Assembly: GCF_000341895.1 (NCBI RefSeq)
Contig: NC_020409.1
Coordinates: 3,000,001-3,032,000, forward strand
DNA: 32,000 bases
From: Pseudodesulfovibrio piezophilus C1TLV30
GTDB lineage: Bacteria; Desulfobacterota; Desulfovibrionia; Desulfovibrionales; Desulfovibrionaceae
Reading direction: 5' to 3'
In this document: positions 3 through 29,394 of the stretch, piece by piece
How the letters are laid out: the number at the start of each line of letters is the position of its first letter
Position numbering within the stretch: the stretch's first letter is position 1
Translations under genes and position numbers: made by a program
The notes under the pieces: generated by a model
What the model was told of the DNA's origin: nothing
Database searches by the model: none
The model's input: only the letters and a program-made list of their open reading frames with translations

Positions 3-1268
3 TTGCCCATGGATACCCATCTGCATCGAATCAGCGGATTGGAGAAGGATTATGTGGATTTCTACGGGGAAGGATATTTGAATGAGTACCCGGCTCCTCC
101 TAAAAAAGAGGTTTCTGTGGCGAATGCTTCTTCGGGACAGTCCTCAAACTCTTCGTTACCCTTGAGAGACTGCGCGAACTCTTCTGACGAATTTGGTCGG
201 CTTATGTGTCTCATCGAAAAACAGAACGGCGCAAAGGGCGGTCGTTCAATGCAATGGCCTCTCGCCGTTTTTCCTTCCTATACGGTCAAGGTGGGGACTG
301 ATGCTTCGCTGGGAGCGGGGCTTTCCCTCAAGGGGATACCCCTTGGGTTGTCCTTCCTGCATGCATCTCAAGCTTTGGCCATGGTGACTATCAAGGACAG
401 CTATAGTGTGGGGCTTCCCGTGGATGTGCTCTACCCGGAAGTGACAGCTTGGGCAGCGCGGCCGGAGGCAAGCGAATTGCTTGATGAATATGTCGATGGC
501 CATGAAAACGTCCTCTACGTTCGGCTTATCACAAAGGTCTTTTTGGCGCAGCAGTTCGACATAGCTCTTCTCTCAAACTCCCAGACTGGCGGCAGGGTAA
601 ACGTCAATACAGAATCAGCCGAGGGAAACGCGACTGCCGACAATGCAACCATGACCGAGCGCTTGACAGAGCTTGTCATGCAAAACCTCGTGACCGCAGC
701 GGCCGACCAGATGCCCAAGGGCGAGGTGGCTTTCATGTCCGGTTCATCCAGTGCCGTGAGCCTGCGAGAGACGTTGGATCGTCCTGTTGTTCTCGGGTAT
801 CACGCTGTTGATATACCGGTTTTTGACGGCGGGAGGCTTGGAGCACCGGTTGCCACACAAAGCTTTCTCCTTGACCGGGCAACGCCCTTGGCCTCGGCCA
901 GGGAAATCAGGGAAAACCGGTTGAGCATCGTGGATCTGAATCGCGAAGTAAATTCTCTATCCAGGACGTGCGCTGTCTTTTTCATGCATATTATGGCGGA
1001 TAGAAGTCCTGATCGTTATGGCTCAATCGTATCTTTACTCGATCGATTGGTCGCAGAAGCTCAAGAAGGATCAGTGACTGAGAGTTTCTTTGACGCGACA
1101 AAAAAAGATTTCGATGACGTTACCGATGACTGGATTAACGAGGCTGCCAATGCATCAACGGAAGAAAGCGACCGGATTTTACGATCGATCAAGGCGGAAT
1201 ACGTGCGAGCGCTCGGGATGGCCCGGCGTCGATGCGAGAGCATGAAGAGCAGGAGGAATTATGAGTGA
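3..1268 (+). CDS. Hypothetical protein, possibly truncated at the 5' window edge. It has a Ser-rich N-terminal stretch, a beta-rich central region with a gasdermin-N-like motif pattern (speculative), and a helical charged C-terminal region.
   Basis: The frame is open from the window edge (TTG at 3, ATG at 9), so the true start may lie upstream. The stop TGA 1266-1268 overlaps the ATG of the next ORF. I recognise no family with certainty. Motifs in order: GTDASLGAGLSLKG, VTIKDSYSV, ENVLYVRLITKVF, GGRVNVNT, PVVLGYHAVDI. Confidence 0.6.
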   Translation: MPMDTHLHRISGLEKDYVDFYGEGYLNEYPAPPKKEVSVANASSGQSSNSSLPLRDCANSSDEFGRLMCLIEKQNGAKGGRSMQWPLAVFPSYTVKVGTDASLGAGLSLKGIPLGLSFLHASQALAMVTIKDSYSVGLPVDVLYPEVTAWAARPEASELLDEYVDGHENVLYVRLITKVFLAQQFDIALLSNSQTGGRVNVNTESAEGNATADNATMTERLTELVMQNLVTAAADQMPKGEVAFMSGSSSAVSLRETLDRPVVLGYHAVDIPVFDGGRLGAPVATQSFLLDRATPLASAREIRENRLSIVDLNREVNSLSRTCAVFFMHIMADRSPDRYGSIVSLLDRLVAEAQEGSVTESFFDATKKDFDDVTDDWINEAANASTEESDRILRSIKAEYVRALGMARRRCESMKSRRNYE

Positions 1269-3711: not shown

Positions 3712-3767
3712 GTCAGTCAAAAGAATCCCCCGGAGACAGATGTTTCCGGGGGATTCTTTTGACTGAC
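3712..3767. terminator. Very long perfect hairpin (23-bp stem) between convergent genes. Probably a bidirectional terminator.
   Basis: GTCAGTCAAAAGAATCCCCCGGA (3712-3734) is the exact reverse complement of TCCGGGGGATTCTTTTGACTGAC (3745-3767). The loop is 10 nt. Confidence 0.55.
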
Positions 3768-3814: not shown

Positions 3815-4144
3815 TTAGCAGCCGCAACCTGAAGAGCCGCATCCACCGCTGGAGCAATCGCATCCGCCGCCGCCACCGACTTCATTTTCGGAATCAATGG
3901 TGAATCCGTATTGAGTCATGTCAATGGTCACTTTGCCTGTAGCTTCTGCCAGTTCCTCATTGATGAGAAAGGTAAAGCTTTCAAGTTCCACTGATTTGTC
4001 ACCGTCGCGCGGTTCGTCGAGGGCCAGGGAAAGCCGCATGCCGCTGCAACCGCCACCTGCGAGATGAATACGGATGGGAGAGACGGTTTTCCCTTCAAAG
4101 TAAGAGGTCAGTTCCTTTTGTGCTGATTCGGTCACATTGATCAT
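3815..4144 (-). CDS. HesB/IscA-like Fe-S cluster assembly/carrier protein (Cys form) with a Cys/Gly/Ser-rich C-terminal tail.
   Basis: Translation: MINVTESAQKELTSYFEGKTVSPIRIHLAGGGCSGMRLSLALDEP...GGGGGCDCSSGGCGSSGCGC. I prefer the start at 4144 over 4168 because it aligns residue-for-residue with the start of the upstream paralogue. Confidence 0.8.
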   Translation of the reverse strand: MINVTESAQKELTSYFEGKTVSPIRIHLAGGGCSGMRLSLALDEPRDGDKSVELESFTFLINEELAEATGKVTIDMTQYGFTIDSENEVGGGGGCDCSSGGCGSSGCGC

Positions 4145-4205
4145 ACTGGTTCCTTTTTTGGGGTTCATGAAAGATTTATGAACGAGTCCCTATCGGGATG
4201 ACTGA

Positions 4206-4239
4206 TAAAAAAGCGACGCCTTGATAAGAGACGTCGCTT
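4206..4239 (-). terminator. Intrinsic terminator between the two HesB-like genes.
   Basis: On the minus strand, AGCGACG-tctcttatcaagg-CGTCGCT is followed by TTTTTT. Confidence 0.6.
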
Positions 4240-4260
4240 TCGATGACCGTAAACTCAGCC

Positions 4261-4605
4261 TTAGCAGGAGCAGCTTCCAGAGCTGCATCCGCCGCTATCG
4301 GTGCCGCAGCCGCCTGAAGAGCAGCCACCTTCACCGCCGACCGAATTTTCGGATTCAACAACAAAACCGTAGTAGGTCATGTCGATTTTCACTTTACCGG
4401 TCTGGGCTTGAAGTTCTTTGTCGATGAGGAAGGTGAATCCACCAGCCTCGAATACTTCGTCTTTATCATTAGGCTCATCCAGAGCCAGAGTCAGGCGAGG
4501 GCCTGCTCAACCTCCGGCTGCGAGGTACACTCGGACAGGAGATGGCTCCTTGTCCTGGAAATAGCCGTCGAGCTGCTTACCGGCAGCTTCAGTCAATTCA
4601 AACAT
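4261..4605 (-). CDS. HesB/IscA-like selenoprotein candidate. An in-frame TGA (4509..4507) sits at the position of the conserved Cys.
   Basis: AGGAGG (4617..4612) lies 6 nt upstream of ATG 4605. Translation: MFELTEAAGKQLDGYFQDKEPSPVRVYLAAGG-TGA-AGPRLTLALDEPNDKDEVFEAGGFTFLIDKELQAQTGKVKIDMTYYGFVVESENSVGGEGGCSSGGCGTDSGGCSSGSCSC-TAA. It is collinear with the Cys paralogue on both sides of the TGA. The ORF track does not list it. Confidence 0.75.
4472..4506 (-). other. Candidate bacterial SECIS region: two small hairpins within 40 nt 3' of the UGA.
   Basis: The mRNA reads UGA-GAGCAGGC-CCUC-GCCUG(A)CUC, then GGCUC-UGGAU-GAGCC. The second hairpin has a G-containing apical loop about 30 nt after the UGA. 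I folded this by eye only. Confidence 0.4.
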
Positions 4606-4768
4606 TGATAGCCTCCTATAGATGGTCGGGAAAAGAAGAGGTAAGAACTCTATGCGGCTTTGTCAAATCGAAATTCGTACATTTCTTGTGCTGATGTTGA
4701 CCCCCTCTGATTGATGGGATAATTCCTGATATTGCCATCCGGCCAAATTGAAGACGAGGCATGATACG

Positions 4769-5311
4769 ATGAAAGAATGTGGTACCATACTGAATGACAA
4801 GGAAATGAACCGGACACTTGAACGTCTGGCCATAGAAGTCTACGAGCGTCATGGTGAATGTGAGACCCTCGCCATTCTCGGCATACAACGACGCGGTGCC
4901 GATCTGGCTGAGCGGTTGAAAAAACTTCTGGATGATCGGTTGGGACGCAAGGTTCCACTGGGCAAGCTTGATATCAATCTCTATCGGGATGACTGGACAA
5001 CCAACCTTGAATTGACCCCCGTTATCAACTGTTCCGAAATAGGGTTCGAGATAGAAGGTGCGTCCATTGTTCTGGTGGATGACGTACTGTATTCCGGCCG
5101 GACTATCCGGGCGGCGCTGGAAGCTATACTGGACTACGGCCGTCCCAGGCGTGTGGAGCTGCTGGTGATGGTTGACAGGGGGAACAGGGAATTGCCCATT
5201 CAGGCCGATTATGTGGGCAAGAAGGTTGAAACTTCCATGGGCCAGCATGTGAATGTACTGGTCAATGAGCGGGACGATGAGGACCGTGTCTGTCTGGTCG
5301 AGGGCGACTAG
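4769..5311 (+). CDS. pyrR: Bifunctional pyrimidine operon regulator / uracil phosphoribosyltransferase PyrR.
   Basis: The PRPP-binding motif IVLVDDVLYSGRTIRAA is present, and the length of about 180 aa is typical. ATG 4769 with an upstream GAGG is preferred to TTG 4748. Confidence 0.85.
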   Translation: MKECGTILNDKEMNRTLERLAIEVYERHGECETLAILGIQRRGADLAERLKKLLDDRLGRKVPLGKLDINLYRDDWTTNLELTPVINCSEIGFEIEGASIVLVDDVLYSGRTIRAALEAILDYGRPRRVELLVMVDRGNRELPIQADYVGKKVETSMGQHVNVLVNERDDEDRVCLVEGD

Positions 5312-5313
5312 GT

Positions 5314-5850
5314 ATGGCGTTTACTCCTGTTGATCGGGACCCTGTCCCACAGCCTTGTATTACGTTGGTAGGGATGGCTGGTGCCGGAAAAACCACCCTC
5401 GGAGCTATGCTGGCCCGACAACTCGATTGGGGGCAGCTTGATACCGACCTGTATCTTGAATCCTACTACGGGATGCCGCTTCAAACTATTATGGACACCT
5501 ACGGACTTGATGACTTTTTGCGCATCGAGGATCACCTTGTCAGCGAATTGGGACTGACAAGGACAGTTATTTCCACTGGAGGAAGTGTCATCTATGGCAC
5601 CCAGGCCATGGCTCGTTTGAAGGAGCTTGGCAAAGTCGTTTTTCTGGACATTGACGAGACAACATTTCTCAAGCGGGTCGGCGATGGCGAGAATCGCGGC
5701 TTAGCCATTGCTCCAGGTGCCAGTATGAGTGACCTTTACAACGAGCGGCAGCCACTGTACCGTGCCGCCGCCGACATCGTGGTCCGCACCGACAGGGACA
5801 CACCGGAAGCATGTGTGGCCCAGATTCTCGAACACATTGATCTGATATGA
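5314..5850 (+). CDS. aroK: Shikimate kinase family protein.
   Basis: Walker A GMAGAGKTT, followed by the DTD motif, STGGS, and a C-terminal pattern typical of AroK. It starts 3 nt after the pyrR stop. Confidence 0.75.
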   Translation: MAFTPVDRDPVPQPCITLVGMAGAGKTTLGAMLARQLDWGQLDTDLYLESYYGMPLQTIMDTYGLDDFLRIEDHLVSELGLTRTVISTGGSVIYGTQAMARLKELGKVVFLDIDETTFLKRVGDGENRGLAIAPGASMSDLYNERQPLYRAAADIVVRTDRDTPEACVAQILEHIDLI

Positions 5851-22351: not shown

Positions 22352-22567
22352 AGACTTCTCCGATCATGTTGTGTGTGCAACCGACCCGTGTCGGCAGACG
22401 CTCTCAATAGCTCAAAAGAACAGGGCTGGCAACGGTGCACGCCCTTGTGTCAGAGAGGTAAGACATTGGGGAGAAATGTCCAGTGAGTCGAGAATGAATG
22501 ACTCGTTGCTTGCGGGCAACTTGCATTCAGTATAAGAATTTTGATTATGGTGAGGGAGCTTGTTTTT

Positions 22568-22583
22568 ATGAGATAGATCTCAT
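22568..22583. promoter_or_regulatory. 16-bp palindrome upstream of the first TPR paralogue.
   Basis: ATGAGAT-ag-ATCTCAT, about 45 nt upstream of ATG 22627. Confidence 0.25.
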
Positions 22584-22626
22584 CTTTGTACCAATGAATT
22601 TGCCTTGGGAGGTTCTTCGGAAATCC

Positions 22627-23595
22627 ATGGAAGATGCACGAATACATACCAGTGCGGACAGCCGCGTCGAGTCGAGTGAAGGGTGTTCCGGCCTGGATAA
22701 TCCGGATGAGCAGCTCCGGTGCGTCTTTTCCTCGACCACGGAGATTCGGATAGGAACCGGGACCACGGCCAAGAAGCAGATTTCGAAGCTGCTGTGGTAT
22801 GTGAACCAATGCGGACTGGATGAATACGGTATTCGCAAGATCAATCCGAACTTTGTTCCGGTGGGTGAAGAAGACCTTATCGATCAGGAAAAATTGCTTA
22901 CTGACTACACTCCCGAGGTCGAAATTCACAATGCACGGGTCATGCCTGCCATGAGGGCGTTGAAAAAGACCATTGCCAAAGGTGACAAGCATCGGGAGAA
23001 CGGTGAACCGCTGTCAGCCGAGATGGAATACACCCGTGCACTTGATGTGGATGAAACCAATGTCAGGGCCATTTTTGGTTTGGGATTGGTCTATCTTGAT
23101 CGCAAAGACAAGGATAAGTCGCGTGGAGTTTTCGAGCAATTGGTTTCGCTTCAAGGTGCTTTTCATGAAAATCACAAACACCTTTTTAACGAATTCGGCA
23201 TAGCCTTGCGCAAGAATGGCCTGTATGATGAGTCGGTGCAGTATTATACCCGCGCTGTGGAATTGACCAAGAATGATGAGAACCTGTACTATAATCTGGC
23301 ACGCGCTTTCTATGAAAAGGGAGACTGGGAGTATTGTTTCACCTTTGCCAGCAAGGCTCTGGATATCAATGCCTATCATGAGCATGCCATTGCCATGTGT
23401 CGATTCATGATGACTCTGGCAGGAAACGAAAACCTGCGGACCAAATATGATAAACCGCCGGTCCCGGCAGACCTCGTTGCACAGGCTTCCGCGCGACTCG
23501 GCATAGATGCGAGCGATGAGCATGCAATGGTCGAAATCGATCCAGACGGCTTCGGAACGGAGTTGGTTTCGGGCGATACCACATCCGAAAAGTAG
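22627..23595 (+). CDS. TPR-repeat protein, paralogue 1 of 3. Conserved N-terminal beta-rich domain plus TPRs.
   Basis: The start at 22627 (MEDAR) was chosen because the distance to the conserved RCVFS motif then matches paralogues 2 and 3. Shared blocks: HLFNEFGIALRK, DENLYYNLARA, KPPVP. Confidence 0.75.
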   Translation: MEDARIHTSADSRVESSEGCSGLDNPDEQLRCVFSSTTEIRIGTGTTAKKQISKLLWYVNQCGLDEYGIRKINPNFVPVGEEDLIDQEKLLTDYTPEVEIHNARVMPAMRALKKTIAKGDKHRENGEPLSAEMEYTRALDVDETNVRAIFGLGLVYLDRKDKDKSRGVFEQLVSLQGAFHENHKHLFNEFGIALRKNGLYDESVQYYTRAVELTKNDENLYYNLARAFYEKGDWEYCFTFASKALDINAYHEHAIAMCRFMMTLAGNENLRTKYDKPPVPADLVAQASARLGIDASDEHAMVEIDPDGFGTELVSGDTTSEK

Positions 23596-23604
23596 CCGGA
23601 GGCA

Positions 23605-24204
23605 TTGGTGGGGAAGAGACTTGAAATAACGATTTTCGGTATGTTTCAGAAGGTCGGCGCGCTCTATCTTTTTCGCAAGTCGATTCAGTCCGGTGTCAAT
23701 GCCTACGGGAAACGAAAATGGCATGATCTCGTTCGGGATATAGCTTTGGGATTACTTCCCGTCAAAAAGCTGAGGCAGGTGTCACAGGTGGTGGGGCAAC
23801 CGCTCAAGCCTGTGTATCAAGTGCAGGGTATTTCCATGCAAGGGCGCGAATTTGGACTGGAGTTTTTTCATGGCGGCCAATTTCTCCCCATGACCTTCAT
23901 GGAGGGAGGAGGCAGAGATATTCAGGTGGCGGGGTTGATGCGACAATGCTGTCGGGGTGATATGCTGGGTGTTTTCAGCGCACAGCGAGAGGGCGCGTTG
24001 AATTTTCGCTGGGACGATGTGGACGAGGTCAACCCTGAAGAGGTTGCTCTTGTCTATGATGATGTCTCTGAACTTCTGGGCAGGAAACGATCCTGCGAAA
24101 TAGCCTTGGATATGACATGGAAGGGGAGAAACGGCAAATGCAGGGGAATGGACAGCGCACAAAAGTTTTTGGGCCACAAACACGCCTTTCACATGACGAA
24201 GTAA
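23605..24204 (+). CDS. Uncertain hypothetical ORF in the spacer between TPR paralogues 1 and 2.
   Basis: The frame is open for 199 codons on the plus strand and 136 codons on the minus strand (23782-24192). There is no convincing RBS for either and no family is recognised. The plus strand is favoured only by ORF length and co-orientation. Confidence 0.3.
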   Translation: MVGKRLEITIFGMFQKVGALYLFRKSIQSGVNAYGKRKWHDLVRDIALGLLPVKKLRQVSQVVGQPLKPVYQVQGISMQGREFGLEFFHGGQFLPMTFMEGGGRDIQVAGLMRQCCRGDMLGVFSAQREGALNFRWDDVDEVNPEEVALVYDDVSELLGRKRSCEIALDMTWKGRNGKCRGMDSAQKFLGHKHAFHMTK

Positions 24205-24226
24205 ATCTTTTTTCAGGTGGTGTTTC

Positions 24227-25249
24227 GTGAGTGCTCATAAGCATGATTCCGGCTCCGAGCCAGGACTTGATGCTCTGATTTCCGAAAGCGGCTTCGAATT
24301 CTTGGCGGATGGCGGTTTGATTCGGTGTGCCTTTTCAACAGTGAAAGCGATCAGGGTGGGGGTCGGGAGTAGTAGTCGGAAGCATGTGAGTCAGATATAT
24401 TGGTATGTTGAACAGATTGATGACAATATGTTTGAGATGCGGCGTATTAATGACAAGAATGTTCCGGCTGGAGATGTGACTGTCATTTCCCTGAATCGCT
24501 TGCTTGATGAGTATACTCCGGAACTTGCCTATTATGAAGAAGTGGTGCTTCCGGCGCTGGAATCCCTCGAAGAAACAGTGGGGCAGGGTGATGCATTTCG
24601 CAAAGAAGGTCGGCTCTATTCTGCGGAACTTGAATACGGGAGAGTCCTTGAAATCGAGGAATCGAATGTCCGGGCTGTTTTTGGTCTGGGGTTGATCCAT
24701 GCCAGCCGTAACGAAGTACAACGAACCAGAGAAATATTGAAACAACTGGTCGATATTCAGGCTGCCTTTGATGGAAAAAATCAGCATCTTTTCAACGAGT
24801 TCGGGATAGCCCTGCGCAAAACTCGTCTCTTTGAGGAGGCCGTGGCATATTATAGTCGCGCATTGGATTTCGTGACAGATGACGAGAATTTGTATTACAA
24901 TCTTGCCCGAGCGCATTATGAAGCAGACAACTGGACAGAGTGTGTGGAGGCTTTGGCCTTATCATACCGGCTCAACCCCGAGTTGGTGGTGACACGAGAC
25001 CTGCTTACGGTCATAGTGAAGTTGGCAGAAAGTGAACGGTTATCCAAAGAATCCGGCAAGCCGCCAGTTCCCTCTGGAATAGGGAACAGAGCACGGCGGT
25101 TGTTGGAAGCGGAAGAGGGTCTTCCTTTGGATGAAAACCCGGTGCGCAGGGAAGAAGTCGAGGCTTCCTTTACGGGAGCCAGTGGCCGGGCTCGCTCGGG
25201 AGCTTTGACAAAGGCAGCACCGGACAATTCGGGTGATGAGGAAAATTGA
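24227..25249 (+). CDS. TPR-repeat protein, paralogue 2 of 3.
   Basis: GTG start with AGGTGG 6 nt upstream. It shares the same conserved blocks as paralogues 1 and 3. Confidence 0.75.
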   Translation: MSAHKHDSGSEPGLDALISESGFEFLADGGLIRCAFSTVKAIRVGVGSSSRKHVSQIYWYVEQIDDNMFEMRRINDKNVPAGDVTVISLNRLLDEYTPELAYYEEVVLPALESLEETVGQGDAFRKEGRLYSAELEYGRVLEIEESNVRAVFGLGLIHASRNEVQRTREILKQLVDIQAAFDGKNQHLFNEFGIALRKTRLFEEAVAYYSRALDFVTDDENLYYNLARAHYEADNWTECVEALALSYRLNPELVVTRDLLTVIVKLAESERLSKESGKPPVPSGIGNRARRLLEAEEGLPLDENPVRREEVEASFTGASGRARSGALTKAAPDNSGDEEN

Positions 25250-25254
25250 GGCAA

Positions 25255-25284
25255 GGCATGCGTGCTTCATGCGAGACGCATGCC
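25255..25284 (+). other. Perfect 9-bp-stem hairpin between TPR paralogues 2 and 3.
   Basis: GGCATGCGT-gcttcatgcgag-ACGCATGCC. No T-run follows, so it is not a canonical intrinsic terminator. Confidence 0.35.
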
Positions 25285-25322
25285 AATTCGTAGAGTAACG
25301 TGATCGAAGGAATAGACTTGAG

Positions 25323-26354
25323 ATGACCGAAGACTCGGGACGGCTCGAACTTGATACCGGGCAATCTTACCTCGCAGAAGCAACCTCGGATGAAGGGTTG
25401 GTGAACTGCGTGTTTTCTTCCACTTCGATGATCAAGGTGGGAACAGGAACGACCACGCGTTCTCACCGGACGAAGTTGTATTGGTATGTGGAAGAAATTG
25501 AAGACAAGCTTTTTGCGGTTCGTCAGATCAATACGAATAGTGTTCCATCCGGGGATGAAAAGATTATCTCACTTGATGAATTGATGGCGGAGTATTCGCC
25601 TGAAGTGGAATATTTCGAGGATCAGACTCTCCCGGCAATGCAGAATCTTGATGATCATCTTGACCTTGGAGAATCCCTCCGGGAGGAAGAGCGGTTTTAC
25701 AGTGCAGAGCATTGTTTTACCAATGCCCTTGGCATAGATGAAAAAAATGTCAGGGCATTGTTTAATCTCGGCTTGATTTACCTCGAATCCCACAACATCG
25801 AAAGAGCGCGGGATATGATGCAGGAGATTCTCAAAATCAAAGCGGCTTTCAAAGGAAAAAATCACCATTTGTTCAATGAATTCGGTATCGCTTTGCGCAA
25901 GAGCGGACTATACGATGAATCTGTGGAATATTATGCCAAGGCAGTGGAGTTTGCCCCGGAAGATGAAAATCTTTTCTATAATCTTTCCCGAGCCAACTAT
26001 GAGCGCGGGAACTGGGAGGAATGCGTCTCAGCCCTTTCCCAGAGCCGACTTCTTAATCCTGGGCTTGGGGCGGCAAAGAGTCTGGCCAAGTTGATCGTGG
26101 AGATGCACGACAAACCCTTGCTATGCGAGAAACAGGGAAAACCGCCTGTTCCGGCGAATATCATCGAGGCCTTAGGGGGTGACGTTCTTGGAAAAGACAG
26201 AGCTGTCTCCTATTCGCCAGGACAAGCCGAATCTGTGGACCGTGCACGCGGTAAGGCAACGAAATCTTCCGAAGAAAAGCAATTCACAGAGAAAGAGCAG
26301 TCGTCAGAACAAAAAGGCCCTTCTGATTCCGTCAAGATTGAGTTTGATATCTAA
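25323..26354 (+). CDS. TPR-repeat protein, paralogue 3 of 3, with a Ser/Glu/Lys-rich tail.
   Basis: ATG 25323. It shares the same conserved blocks: VNCVFSSTSMIKVGTGTT, HLFNEFGIALRK, DENLFYNLSRA, GKPPVP. Confidence 0.8.
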   Translation: MTEDSGRLELDTGQSYLAEATSDEGLVNCVFSSTSMIKVGTGTTTRSHRTKLYWYVEEIEDKLFAVRQINTNSVPSGDEKIISLDELMAEYSPEVEYFEDQTLPAMQNLDDHLDLGESLREEERFYSAEHCFTNALGIDEKNVRALFNLGLIYLESHNIERARDMMQEILKIKAAFKGKNHHLFNEFGIALRKSGLYDESVEYYAKAVEFAPEDENLFYNLSRANYERGNWEECVSALSQSRLLNPGLGAAKSLAKLIVEMHDKPLLCEKQGKPPVPANIIEALGGDVLGKDRAVSYSPGQAESVDRARGKATKSSEEKQFTEKEQSSEQKGPSDSVKIEFDI

Positions 26355-29112: not shown

Positions 29113-29394
29113 TCATAGTTTCTGACGCCATGTGGTAAAGCTGTCAAAATGCTCCCGGAGTTCTCCGATTGTCGATTCGACTCGGCTGACCCGTGCCAAC
29201 AGTGGCCCTTCATGCAGCCGTGCGGCAAAGAGTTTCAGAACCATCGGTTCTCCTTGTGCCAGGGCTTCGACATGACCATCGGGTCGATTTCGTACCCACC
29301 CGGTGACACCCAATTCCTTTGCCAGCTCACAGGTCCATTTCCTGAACCAGACTCTTTGCACCTTGCCGTGGATAATGGCTCTTAGTTCCTGCAT
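29113..29394 (-). CDS. acyP: Acylphosphatase.
   Basis: 93 aa. IHGKVQRVWFRKWT...GWVRNRPDGHVEA matches the acylphosphatase signature pattern. Confidence 0.8.
   Translation of the reverse strand: MQELRAIIHGKVQRVWFRKWTCELAKELGVTGWVRNRPDGHVEALAQGEPMVLKLFAARLHEGPLLARVSRVESTIGELREHFDSFTTWRQKL

Follow-up and report, generated by a model that had tools for sequence, protein, structure and literature searches.

The window analysed here, a 32-kb stretch of the genome of Pseudodesulfovibrio piezophilus C1TLV30, carries on its minus strand at positions 4261 to 4605 a HesB/IscA-like gene that contains an in-frame UGA codon and is predicted to encode a selenoprotein of 114 residues. The reading frame starts at ATG 4605..4603, with the ribosome-binding site AGGAGG (4612..4617, minus strand) located 6 nt upstream. 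It runs through 32 sense codons to TGA at 4509..4507 and then through 81 sense codons to the stop codon TAA at 4263..4261. The frame, ribosome-binding site and codon counts given in the original prediction for this locus proved to be exact. The product reads MFELTEAAGKQLDGYFQDKEPSPVRVYLAAGG*AGPRLTLALDEP...CSC, where the asterisk marks the UGA. This UGA is codon 33 (4507..4509, minus strand), and as the putative selenocysteine (Sec, U) codon it would specify the first residue of the motif U-A-G-P. The gene is found outside any isc, suf or nif operon, and its neighbours encode a phosphoribosyltransferase, a shikimate kinase and a CBS/ACT protein.

A tandem paralogue with cysteine (Cys) at the corresponding position is encoded at 3815..4144, also on the minus strand, and has 109 residues with Cys33. 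The Joint Genome Institute (JGI) annotation starts this paralogue at ATG 4168, giving 117 aa; however, its orthologues all start with MI.VTES, which indicates ATG 4144 as the true start. The paralogue reads ..IRIHLAGGG-C-SGMRLSLALDEP.. and the selenoprotein ..VRVYLAAGG-*-AGPRLTLALDEP.., with Cys and TGA both at position 33. In BLASTP, the two proteins showed 58% identity over 90 residues (E 3e-37) in a gapless alignment that crosses the TGA column. This agrees with the earlier proposal that the neighbouring gene has 32 residues before its Cys and that the coding similarity continues past the stop codon.

The orthologue set consisted of 27 loci, one genome per species, all belonging to the Desulfovibrionaceae except two metagenome-assembled genomes (MAGs) labelled only Pseudomonadota or Proteobacteria. 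The nearest loci were those of Pseudodesulfovibrio MAGs, with 87–88% protein identity. In each of the 27 orthologues, an ATG preceded by a Shine-Dalgarno sequence opens 32 codons that lead to a TGA, whose surroundings read GG-TGA-[A/G/S]-G-[P/A]-[R/K]-L; AGGAGG or GGAGG plus the start codon is kept at the same spacing in 28/28 sequences. The TGA is invariant in the 27 distinct orthologue sequences, whereas the 15 distinct paralogues carry TGC or TGT. The same TGA was also found in three distant relatives of about 45–55% protein identity, namely a Megalodesulfovibrio-like contig, a metagenome contig from ENA and a Desulfobulbaceae MAG, whose putative Sec forms (L033, 1042–1362; L034, 1384–1701; L035, 1381–1719) retain both the TGA and the core of the hairpin described below. 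In a protein search with Cys replacing the stop, the full-length homologues of about 110 residues were at most 75% identical and had Cys in all those examined, and about 45 full-length Cys homologues run uninterrupted through column 33. The same search returned many ‘hypothetical proteins’ of 62–78 residues, mostly 77–95% identical, which match the C-terminal part only and represent truncated calls. A classical Sec/Cys pair at a conserved residue had been proposed, with the suggestion to ask whether homologues carry Cys or TGA at this column; TGA in the 27 orthologues and three distant relatives, against TGC or TGT in the paralogues and Cys in the homologues, is the pattern of such a pair. The possibility that the two sides of the TGA never form one protein had also been raised, and it is contradicted by the continuous Cys homologues and by the single IscA-type domain that both sides compose.

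The codon-position entropies of the 27 distinct orthologues were calculated on both sides of the TGA. The means at codon positions 1, 2 and 3 were 0.64, 0.26 and 1.32 in the 31 codons upstream, and 0.62, 0.44 and 1.26 in codons +13 to +56. These matching values indicate purifying selection on the protein in this frame on either side of the TGA. In the 32 upstream codons, the orthologues differ from the window by 316 synonymous and 222 non-synonymous differences.

The window sequence is carried by contigs of the JGI metagenomes 3300009847, 3300009848 and 3300009849, as judged by exact-protein matches. Two more metagenome assemblies have exactly the same sequence over 4200–4700, including the TGA, so an assembly or sequencing error at the TGA is unlikely; resequencing to TGC or TGT had been named as a result that would overturn the prediction, and what was seen again in both is TGA. 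Among 24 confident genes of the window, TAG is the stop codon in 13, TAA in eight and TGA in three (5314–5850, 24227–25249 and 29113–29394). None of the three requires read-through, and TGA as their ordinary stop indicates that the genetic code is not reassigned.

Downstream of the UGA, a conserved hairpin of the type of a selenocysteine insertion sequence (SECIS) was found at 4472..4486 on the minus strand, with the sequence GGCUC-UGGAU-GAGCC. The RNAalifold input was the 55 nt from the TGA onward in 25 distinct orthologue sequences; this hairpin was the sole structure kept, with 100% of its cells paired in the 25 sequences. Only the closing pair varies: 21 sequences have G-C, two have A-U (both sides changed) and two have G-U; the other four pairs are invariant. 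The stem begins 20 nt past the UGA. The published model of the bacterial SECIS (bSECIS; PMC13188914) describes an apical loop of 3–9 nt, an upper stem of 4–16 bp, a G within the first two loop positions, a spacing of 16–37 nt from UGA to loop and a folding energy of −7.5 kcal/mol or lower. The hairpin has a 5-nt loop (UGGAU), a 5-bp stem, G at loop position 2 followed by another G, a loop 25 nt past the UGA and a folding energy of −8.8 kcal/mol (z −3.0), and thus falls within the model in each respect. The search for a bacterial SECIS near the UGA on the minus strand, which had been suggested as a check, therefore gave a conserved hairpin (4486..4472) of the expected kind. A larger minimum-free-energy fold that pairs the UGA itself was dropped, as it is not conserved in the alignment.

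The synonymous sites over this hairpin are nearly frozen. In the TGA genes, the third-codon entropy of codons +7 to +12 is 0.36 as compared with about 1.3 elsewhere in the gene. The values for codons +7 to +11 (L-A-L-D-E) are 0.38, 0, 0, 0.61 and 0 in the TGA genes and 0.57, 0.91, 0.72, 0.35 and 1.23 for the same peptide in the Cys paralogues. This freezing, specific to the TGA genes, is stronger evidence for the hairpin than the covariation. In the three distant relatives, the 15-nt core is identical by nucleotide (GGCTCTGGA[T/C]GAGCC), and the stem is 7 bp in two of them.

The membership of the protein in the HesB-like family was examined with hidden Markov models (HMMs), against which the selenoprotein was scored with Cys in place of Sec. 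NCBIfam NF038090 ‘IscA_HesB_Se’ gave 114.4 bits (cutoff 85), and residues 1–97 cover profile positions 1–101 of 101; the tandem Cys paralogue also scored above this cutoff with 102.1 bits. With TIGR01911 ‘HesB_rel_seleno’ the selenoprotein reached 39.3 bits, below the cutoff of 66.35, which places it in the NF038090 branch and not in the branch originally modelled. The scores for IscA TIGR02011, SufA TIGR01997 and ErpA NF010147 were 23.0, 22.3 and 23.9 bits, far below their cutoffs of 150.6, 136.2 and 117, and Pfam PF01521, which describes the IscA fold, was just passed (29.8 bits; cutoff 26.3). It is reported that HesB-like proteins have the motif UxGP (PMC13188914, a 2026 review), and the U-A-G-P of the window fits it.

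In a profile search of the PDB, Aquifex Aq_1857 (1NWB) and Haemophilus HI1723 (2APN) had the Cys of their GGCSG motif at the Sec column; this Cys is one of the three cluster ligands of A-type carriers. The profile also matched E. coli IscA (1R94, 1S98) and the [2Fe-2S]-bound IscA of Thermosynechococcus (1X0G) across the Sec region. The proposal that Sec would sit at a putative cluster-ligating position is consistent with the alignment to 1NWB and 2APN. Of the three cluster-ligating Cys positions of A-type carriers, one in GGCxG and the others in a C-terminal C-x-C, the first would be Sec; those at the C terminus lie within the Gly/Ser/Cys tail, which is variable and whose alignment to the C-G-C of 1NWB and 2APN is only loose. 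The AlphaFold model of the Cys paralogue had a pLDDT of 82.9, with the tail (residues 92–109) disordered at a pLDDT below 50. The best PDB matches of this model in Foldseek were IscA/SufA structures (1R94, 1X0G, 2D2A and 1S98; E 8e-6 to 4e-4, template-modelling scores of about 0.55–0.74). The tails of both paralogues (4261–4335 and 3815–3874, minus strand) are 20–25 residues long, are rich in Gly, Ser and Cys with 4–6 Cys, and vary in length between orthologues. IscA, SufA and ErpA share with the window protein the fold, as seen in the paralogue model, and the GG[C/U]xG motif at the first cluster-ligating Cys. They differ in that the window protein has a predicted Sec for the first ligand Cys, and a Gly/Ser/Cys tail instead of a short C-x-C end. 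With the HesB-like selenoproteins of NF038090, the window gene shares a score over the cutoff, the predicted Sec at the first conserved Cys, the UxGP motif, the SECIS-type hairpin within the coding sequence and the lineage.

In the public annotation this gene is absent. From the phosphoribosyltransferase to the Cys paralogue, the JGI calls are a 62-aa open reading frame (ORF) at 4176–4364 on the minus strand and a 66-aa ORF at 4408–4608 on the plus strand. Both calls are spurious, the former lying out of frame over the Gly/Ser/Cys tail and the latter antisense to the N-terminal part, and the selenoprotein gene was left uncalled because the UGA was read as a stop. In a number of public isolate genomes, among them those of Pseudodesulfovibrio sp. 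zrk46 (HFN16_03195) and P. sediminis (PSDVSF_28900), the orthologue is listed as a truncated ‘hypothetical protein’, and in L033–L035 the calls split each gene into a product of 32/33 aa and then one of 66–72 aa. The original prediction had pointed to the same two ORFs as unrelated fragments and had stated that the gene was unannotated and would be missed or truncated by gene callers. Both ORFs exist, neither in the frame and sense of the gene, and the JGI records without the gene, together with the fragments entered for its relatives, bear out the statement.

Taken together, these sequence comparisons suggest that positions 4261–4605 (minus strand) are very probably a single gene for a 114-residue protein of the IscA_HesB_Se type, in which the UGA at codon 33 would be decoded as Sec by means of a SECIS within the coding sequence. 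The hidden HesB/IscA-like selenoprotein that had been predicted is thus very likely in view of the TGA/Cys column, the single domain, the SECIS-type hairpin and the NF038090 match. Several points weigh against this conclusion. The hairpin is a short one, and with four invariant pairs out of five its covariation is modest, being confined to a single pair in four sequences. Part of its conservation is at the protein level, because the invariant bases also encode the conserved A-L-D-E. No Rfam match was obtained for the window at gathering thresholds, and a permissive scan of 4150–4800 gave chance-level matches only. Neither a Sec machinery gene nor a tRNA-Sec was found with Pfam and ARAGORN in the 32-kb window or the 27 related loci. 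Moreover, the AlphaFold model is that of the Cys paralogue and not of the selenoprotein.

That no Sec machinery was seen in these sequences would also fit a UGA that is read through without any Sec system, by near-cognate Trp or Cys insertion or in a reassigned code, to give a full-length product free of selenium, and TGA is indeed a rare stop in the window (3/24 genes). Nevertheless, three confident genes do end at TGA, and an in-frame TGA occurs in none of the other confident genes. The position is Cys in all paralogues, as expected for a Sec/Cys pair, and the hairpin agrees with the bSECIS model. Both the protein family and the lineage of the bacterium are on record as Sec users (PMC1794560, PMC12013277). 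We therefore consider read-through of this kind very unlikely. A further explanation is that the region holds two small genes, one for a 32-residue peptide that ends at the TGA and one for a protein of 62–78 residues that starts at an internal GTG, ATG or CTG. The database entries of the relatives are fragments of this sort, and those of L033–L035 (32/33 aa, then 66–72 aa) have the same form. On the other hand, strands from both parts build one IscA-type domain, the approximately 45 Cys homologues are continuous, and the called internal starts vary by genome (V51, M51, M38, L40) and lack a conserved ribosome-binding site, making two separate genes highly improbable.

It might also be supposed that the TGA is a defect, in which the Cys codon TGC or TGT of a HesB-like gene has become TGA in a pseudogene or through an assembly error. 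The change needs a single base, and the intact adjoining Cys paralogue could make the TGA copy dispensable. A defect of this kind is hard to reconcile with a TGA at the same column in 27/27 orthologues and three distant relatives, with the identical sequence in two more assemblies, with the equal protein-level purifying selection on either side of the TGA, and with the ribosome-binding site and start codon kept in 28/28 sequences. The frozen synonymous sites of the hairpin are confined to the TGA genes, and a hairpin shared by the orthologues excludes independent recent TGA mutations. The probability of this explanation is close to negligible.

For the selenoprotein, the following mechanism is proposed, and we infer from the comparisons above that Sec is actually inserted. 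The GGCUC-UGGAU-GAGCC hairpin, 20 nt past the UGA, would act as the bacterial SECIS and recruit SelB with Sec-tRNA(Sec) to the ribosome paused at the UGA. Sec would be inserted at codon 33, and translation would go on to TAA 4261. In the protein, Sec may substitute for the first conserved Fe-S-ligating Cys of the A-type carriers, and the disordered Gly/Ser/Cys-rich tail may provide additional thiols. The selenolate could then serve, with the tail thiols, as a ligand or nucleophile in holding or transferring an Fe-S cluster or a related species. From the predicted Sec at the first ligand Cys and the tail thiols, the most likely role of the protein is the binding or transfer of an Fe-S cluster (or of iron, sulfur or selenium).

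The layout of the locus was also compared. Between the two genes, an intrinsic terminator was found at 4205..4241 (minus strand), 3' of the selenoprotein gene, in the form of a 13-bp hairpin leading into a U tract; by direct folding it had an energy of −23.1 kcal/mol and a z of −5.2, and 0/200 shuffles were equally good. A strong hairpin plus U tract between the Sec and Cys genes was present at every tandem locus examined, and in the window this hairpin occupies 4241..4209. Folding also revealed a terminator-like hairpin 3' of the Cys paralogue (3725..3754, minus strand), followed by UCUUUU, within a 91-nt stretch of −38.5 kcal/mol (z −4.8). These minus-strand terminators were not reported by the consensus promoter/terminator scan and were revealed by direct folding. 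The intrinsic terminator indicates that the Sec and Cys genes are separate transcription units, so that differential, possibly selenium-dependent, expression would be possible. In several loci, the Cys gene is preceded by a promoter-like TAGACA-N17-TACTTA.

The order of the window, a Sec gene and then a Cys paralogue, recurs in 18/27 related loci. The paralogue was absent from 8/27 loci, seven of which are among the most distant orthologues (61–70% identity), and the contig of L002 ends too soon to be informative. Two loci had an unusual composition: L001 (10001–11138) carries one Sec gene and then two Cys paralogues, and L003 (10001–11254) carries Sec, Cys and a third degenerate copy without the Cys motif (..FLDT--SAGMRLAWGEDH..).

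Upstream of the selenoprotein gene, the intergenic region 4606–4768 separates it from the phosphoribosyltransferase gene, which starts divergently at ATG 4769. The conserved blocks TTGACA (4666..4661) and CTTACCT (4645..4639) in this region, spanning 4639..4666 on the minus strand, represent a putative promoter/operator of the selenoprotein gene. Across 15 aligned loci of the Pseudodesulfovibrio type, the invariant blocks were TTTGACAAA (containing TTGACA 4666..4661), CTTACCT, GGTCAAC and ATTAnCCCA. Judging from their conservation, these blocks may be promoter and operator; a sigma-70 consensus scan reported no promoter in 4606–4768.

The rest of the window encodes a multihaem cytochrome with its NapC/NirT partner, a sigma-54 activator, a methyl-accepting chemotaxis protein with a hemerythrin domain, CobT, HemC and Lon, and this gene content is consistent with a sulfate reducer. 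No second selenoprotein was found among the approximately 30 Pfam-annotated ORFs of the window, a result that means only that these annotated genes are complete without read-through. When the window was scanned for further frames interrupted by TGA, 111 mechanical candidates came up, which were not individually inspected. At 22498–26354 on the plus strand there are three successive TPR-repeat proteins (365, 340 and 343 aa) that look like tandem paralogues, and a 199-aa ORF without a family match lies between the first and the second. An ORF at 3–1268 (plus strand) runs off the 5' end of the window; it has 421 aa here, 463 or 517 aa in JGI, and no Pfam match.

HesB-like selenoproteins have been known for a long time. 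In the tabulated data of a 2006 study, HesB-like is one of 25 bacterial selenoprotein families and has 11 members, including those of Desulfovibrio vulgaris and D. desulfuricans, which both also possess SelD (PMC1794560). In Salidesulfovibrio onnuriiensis, which belongs to the genus of locus L012, 10 known selenoprotein genes have been listed (PMC12013277). A literature search for Pseudodesulfovibrio together with selenocysteine gave nothing useful. The caution in the original prediction that the family may not be new was well placed, since HesB-like proteins are long established in the relevant sections of the literature (PMC1794560, PMC13188914) and NCBI has the model NF038090. Family, Sec position, motif and lineage had all been documented before, and the window gene is one more unannotated copy.

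The HesB-like selenoprotein of Methanococcus maripaludis, the only family member for which selenium incorporation has been demonstrated, was found by mutagenesis and 75Se labelling, and in the HrsM system of this archaeon, as in the window, a selenoprotein gene and its Cys counterpart occur as separately transcribed genes (PMC11097638). The pairs described in the pertinent part of that paper are methanogenesis enzymes, and the HesB-like selenoprotein is not described there with a Cys partner. HrsM exerts selenium control, whereas selenium-dependent switching at the window locus is an idea only. The order of Sec gene, terminator and Cys paralogue is not mentioned in the relevant portions of the HesB-like selenoprotein literature cited here, although no literature search was aimed at this order. 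The Cys paralogue is plausibly the selenium-independent counterpart of the selenoprotein. Going further, the Sec gene, the terminator and the separately promoted Cys paralogue, a layout conserved in loci of the Pseudodesulfovibrio type, might together act as a bacterial switch between isoforms of an Fe-S (or selenium) carrier in response to selenium, the operator being TTGACA, CTTACCT and GGTCAAC; this is suggested by the arrangement of the locus, and we regard it as speculative and rather unlikely.

Scientifically, the finding adds little, as NCBI already has a curated model of the IscA_HesB_Se subfamily, and its practical value is a correction of the annotation, in which two spurious JGI ORFs stand in place of a real gene. 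The ultraconserved hairpin core GGCUCUGGAUGAGCC, used in combination with the GG-TGA-xGP context, would serve as a simple and specific tag for rescuing such genes. The conserved Sec/Cys tandem is a convenient setting in which to ask what Sec adds to an A-type carrier, and the isoform switch, if true, would link the assembly of metalloclusters in sulfate reducers to their selenium status.

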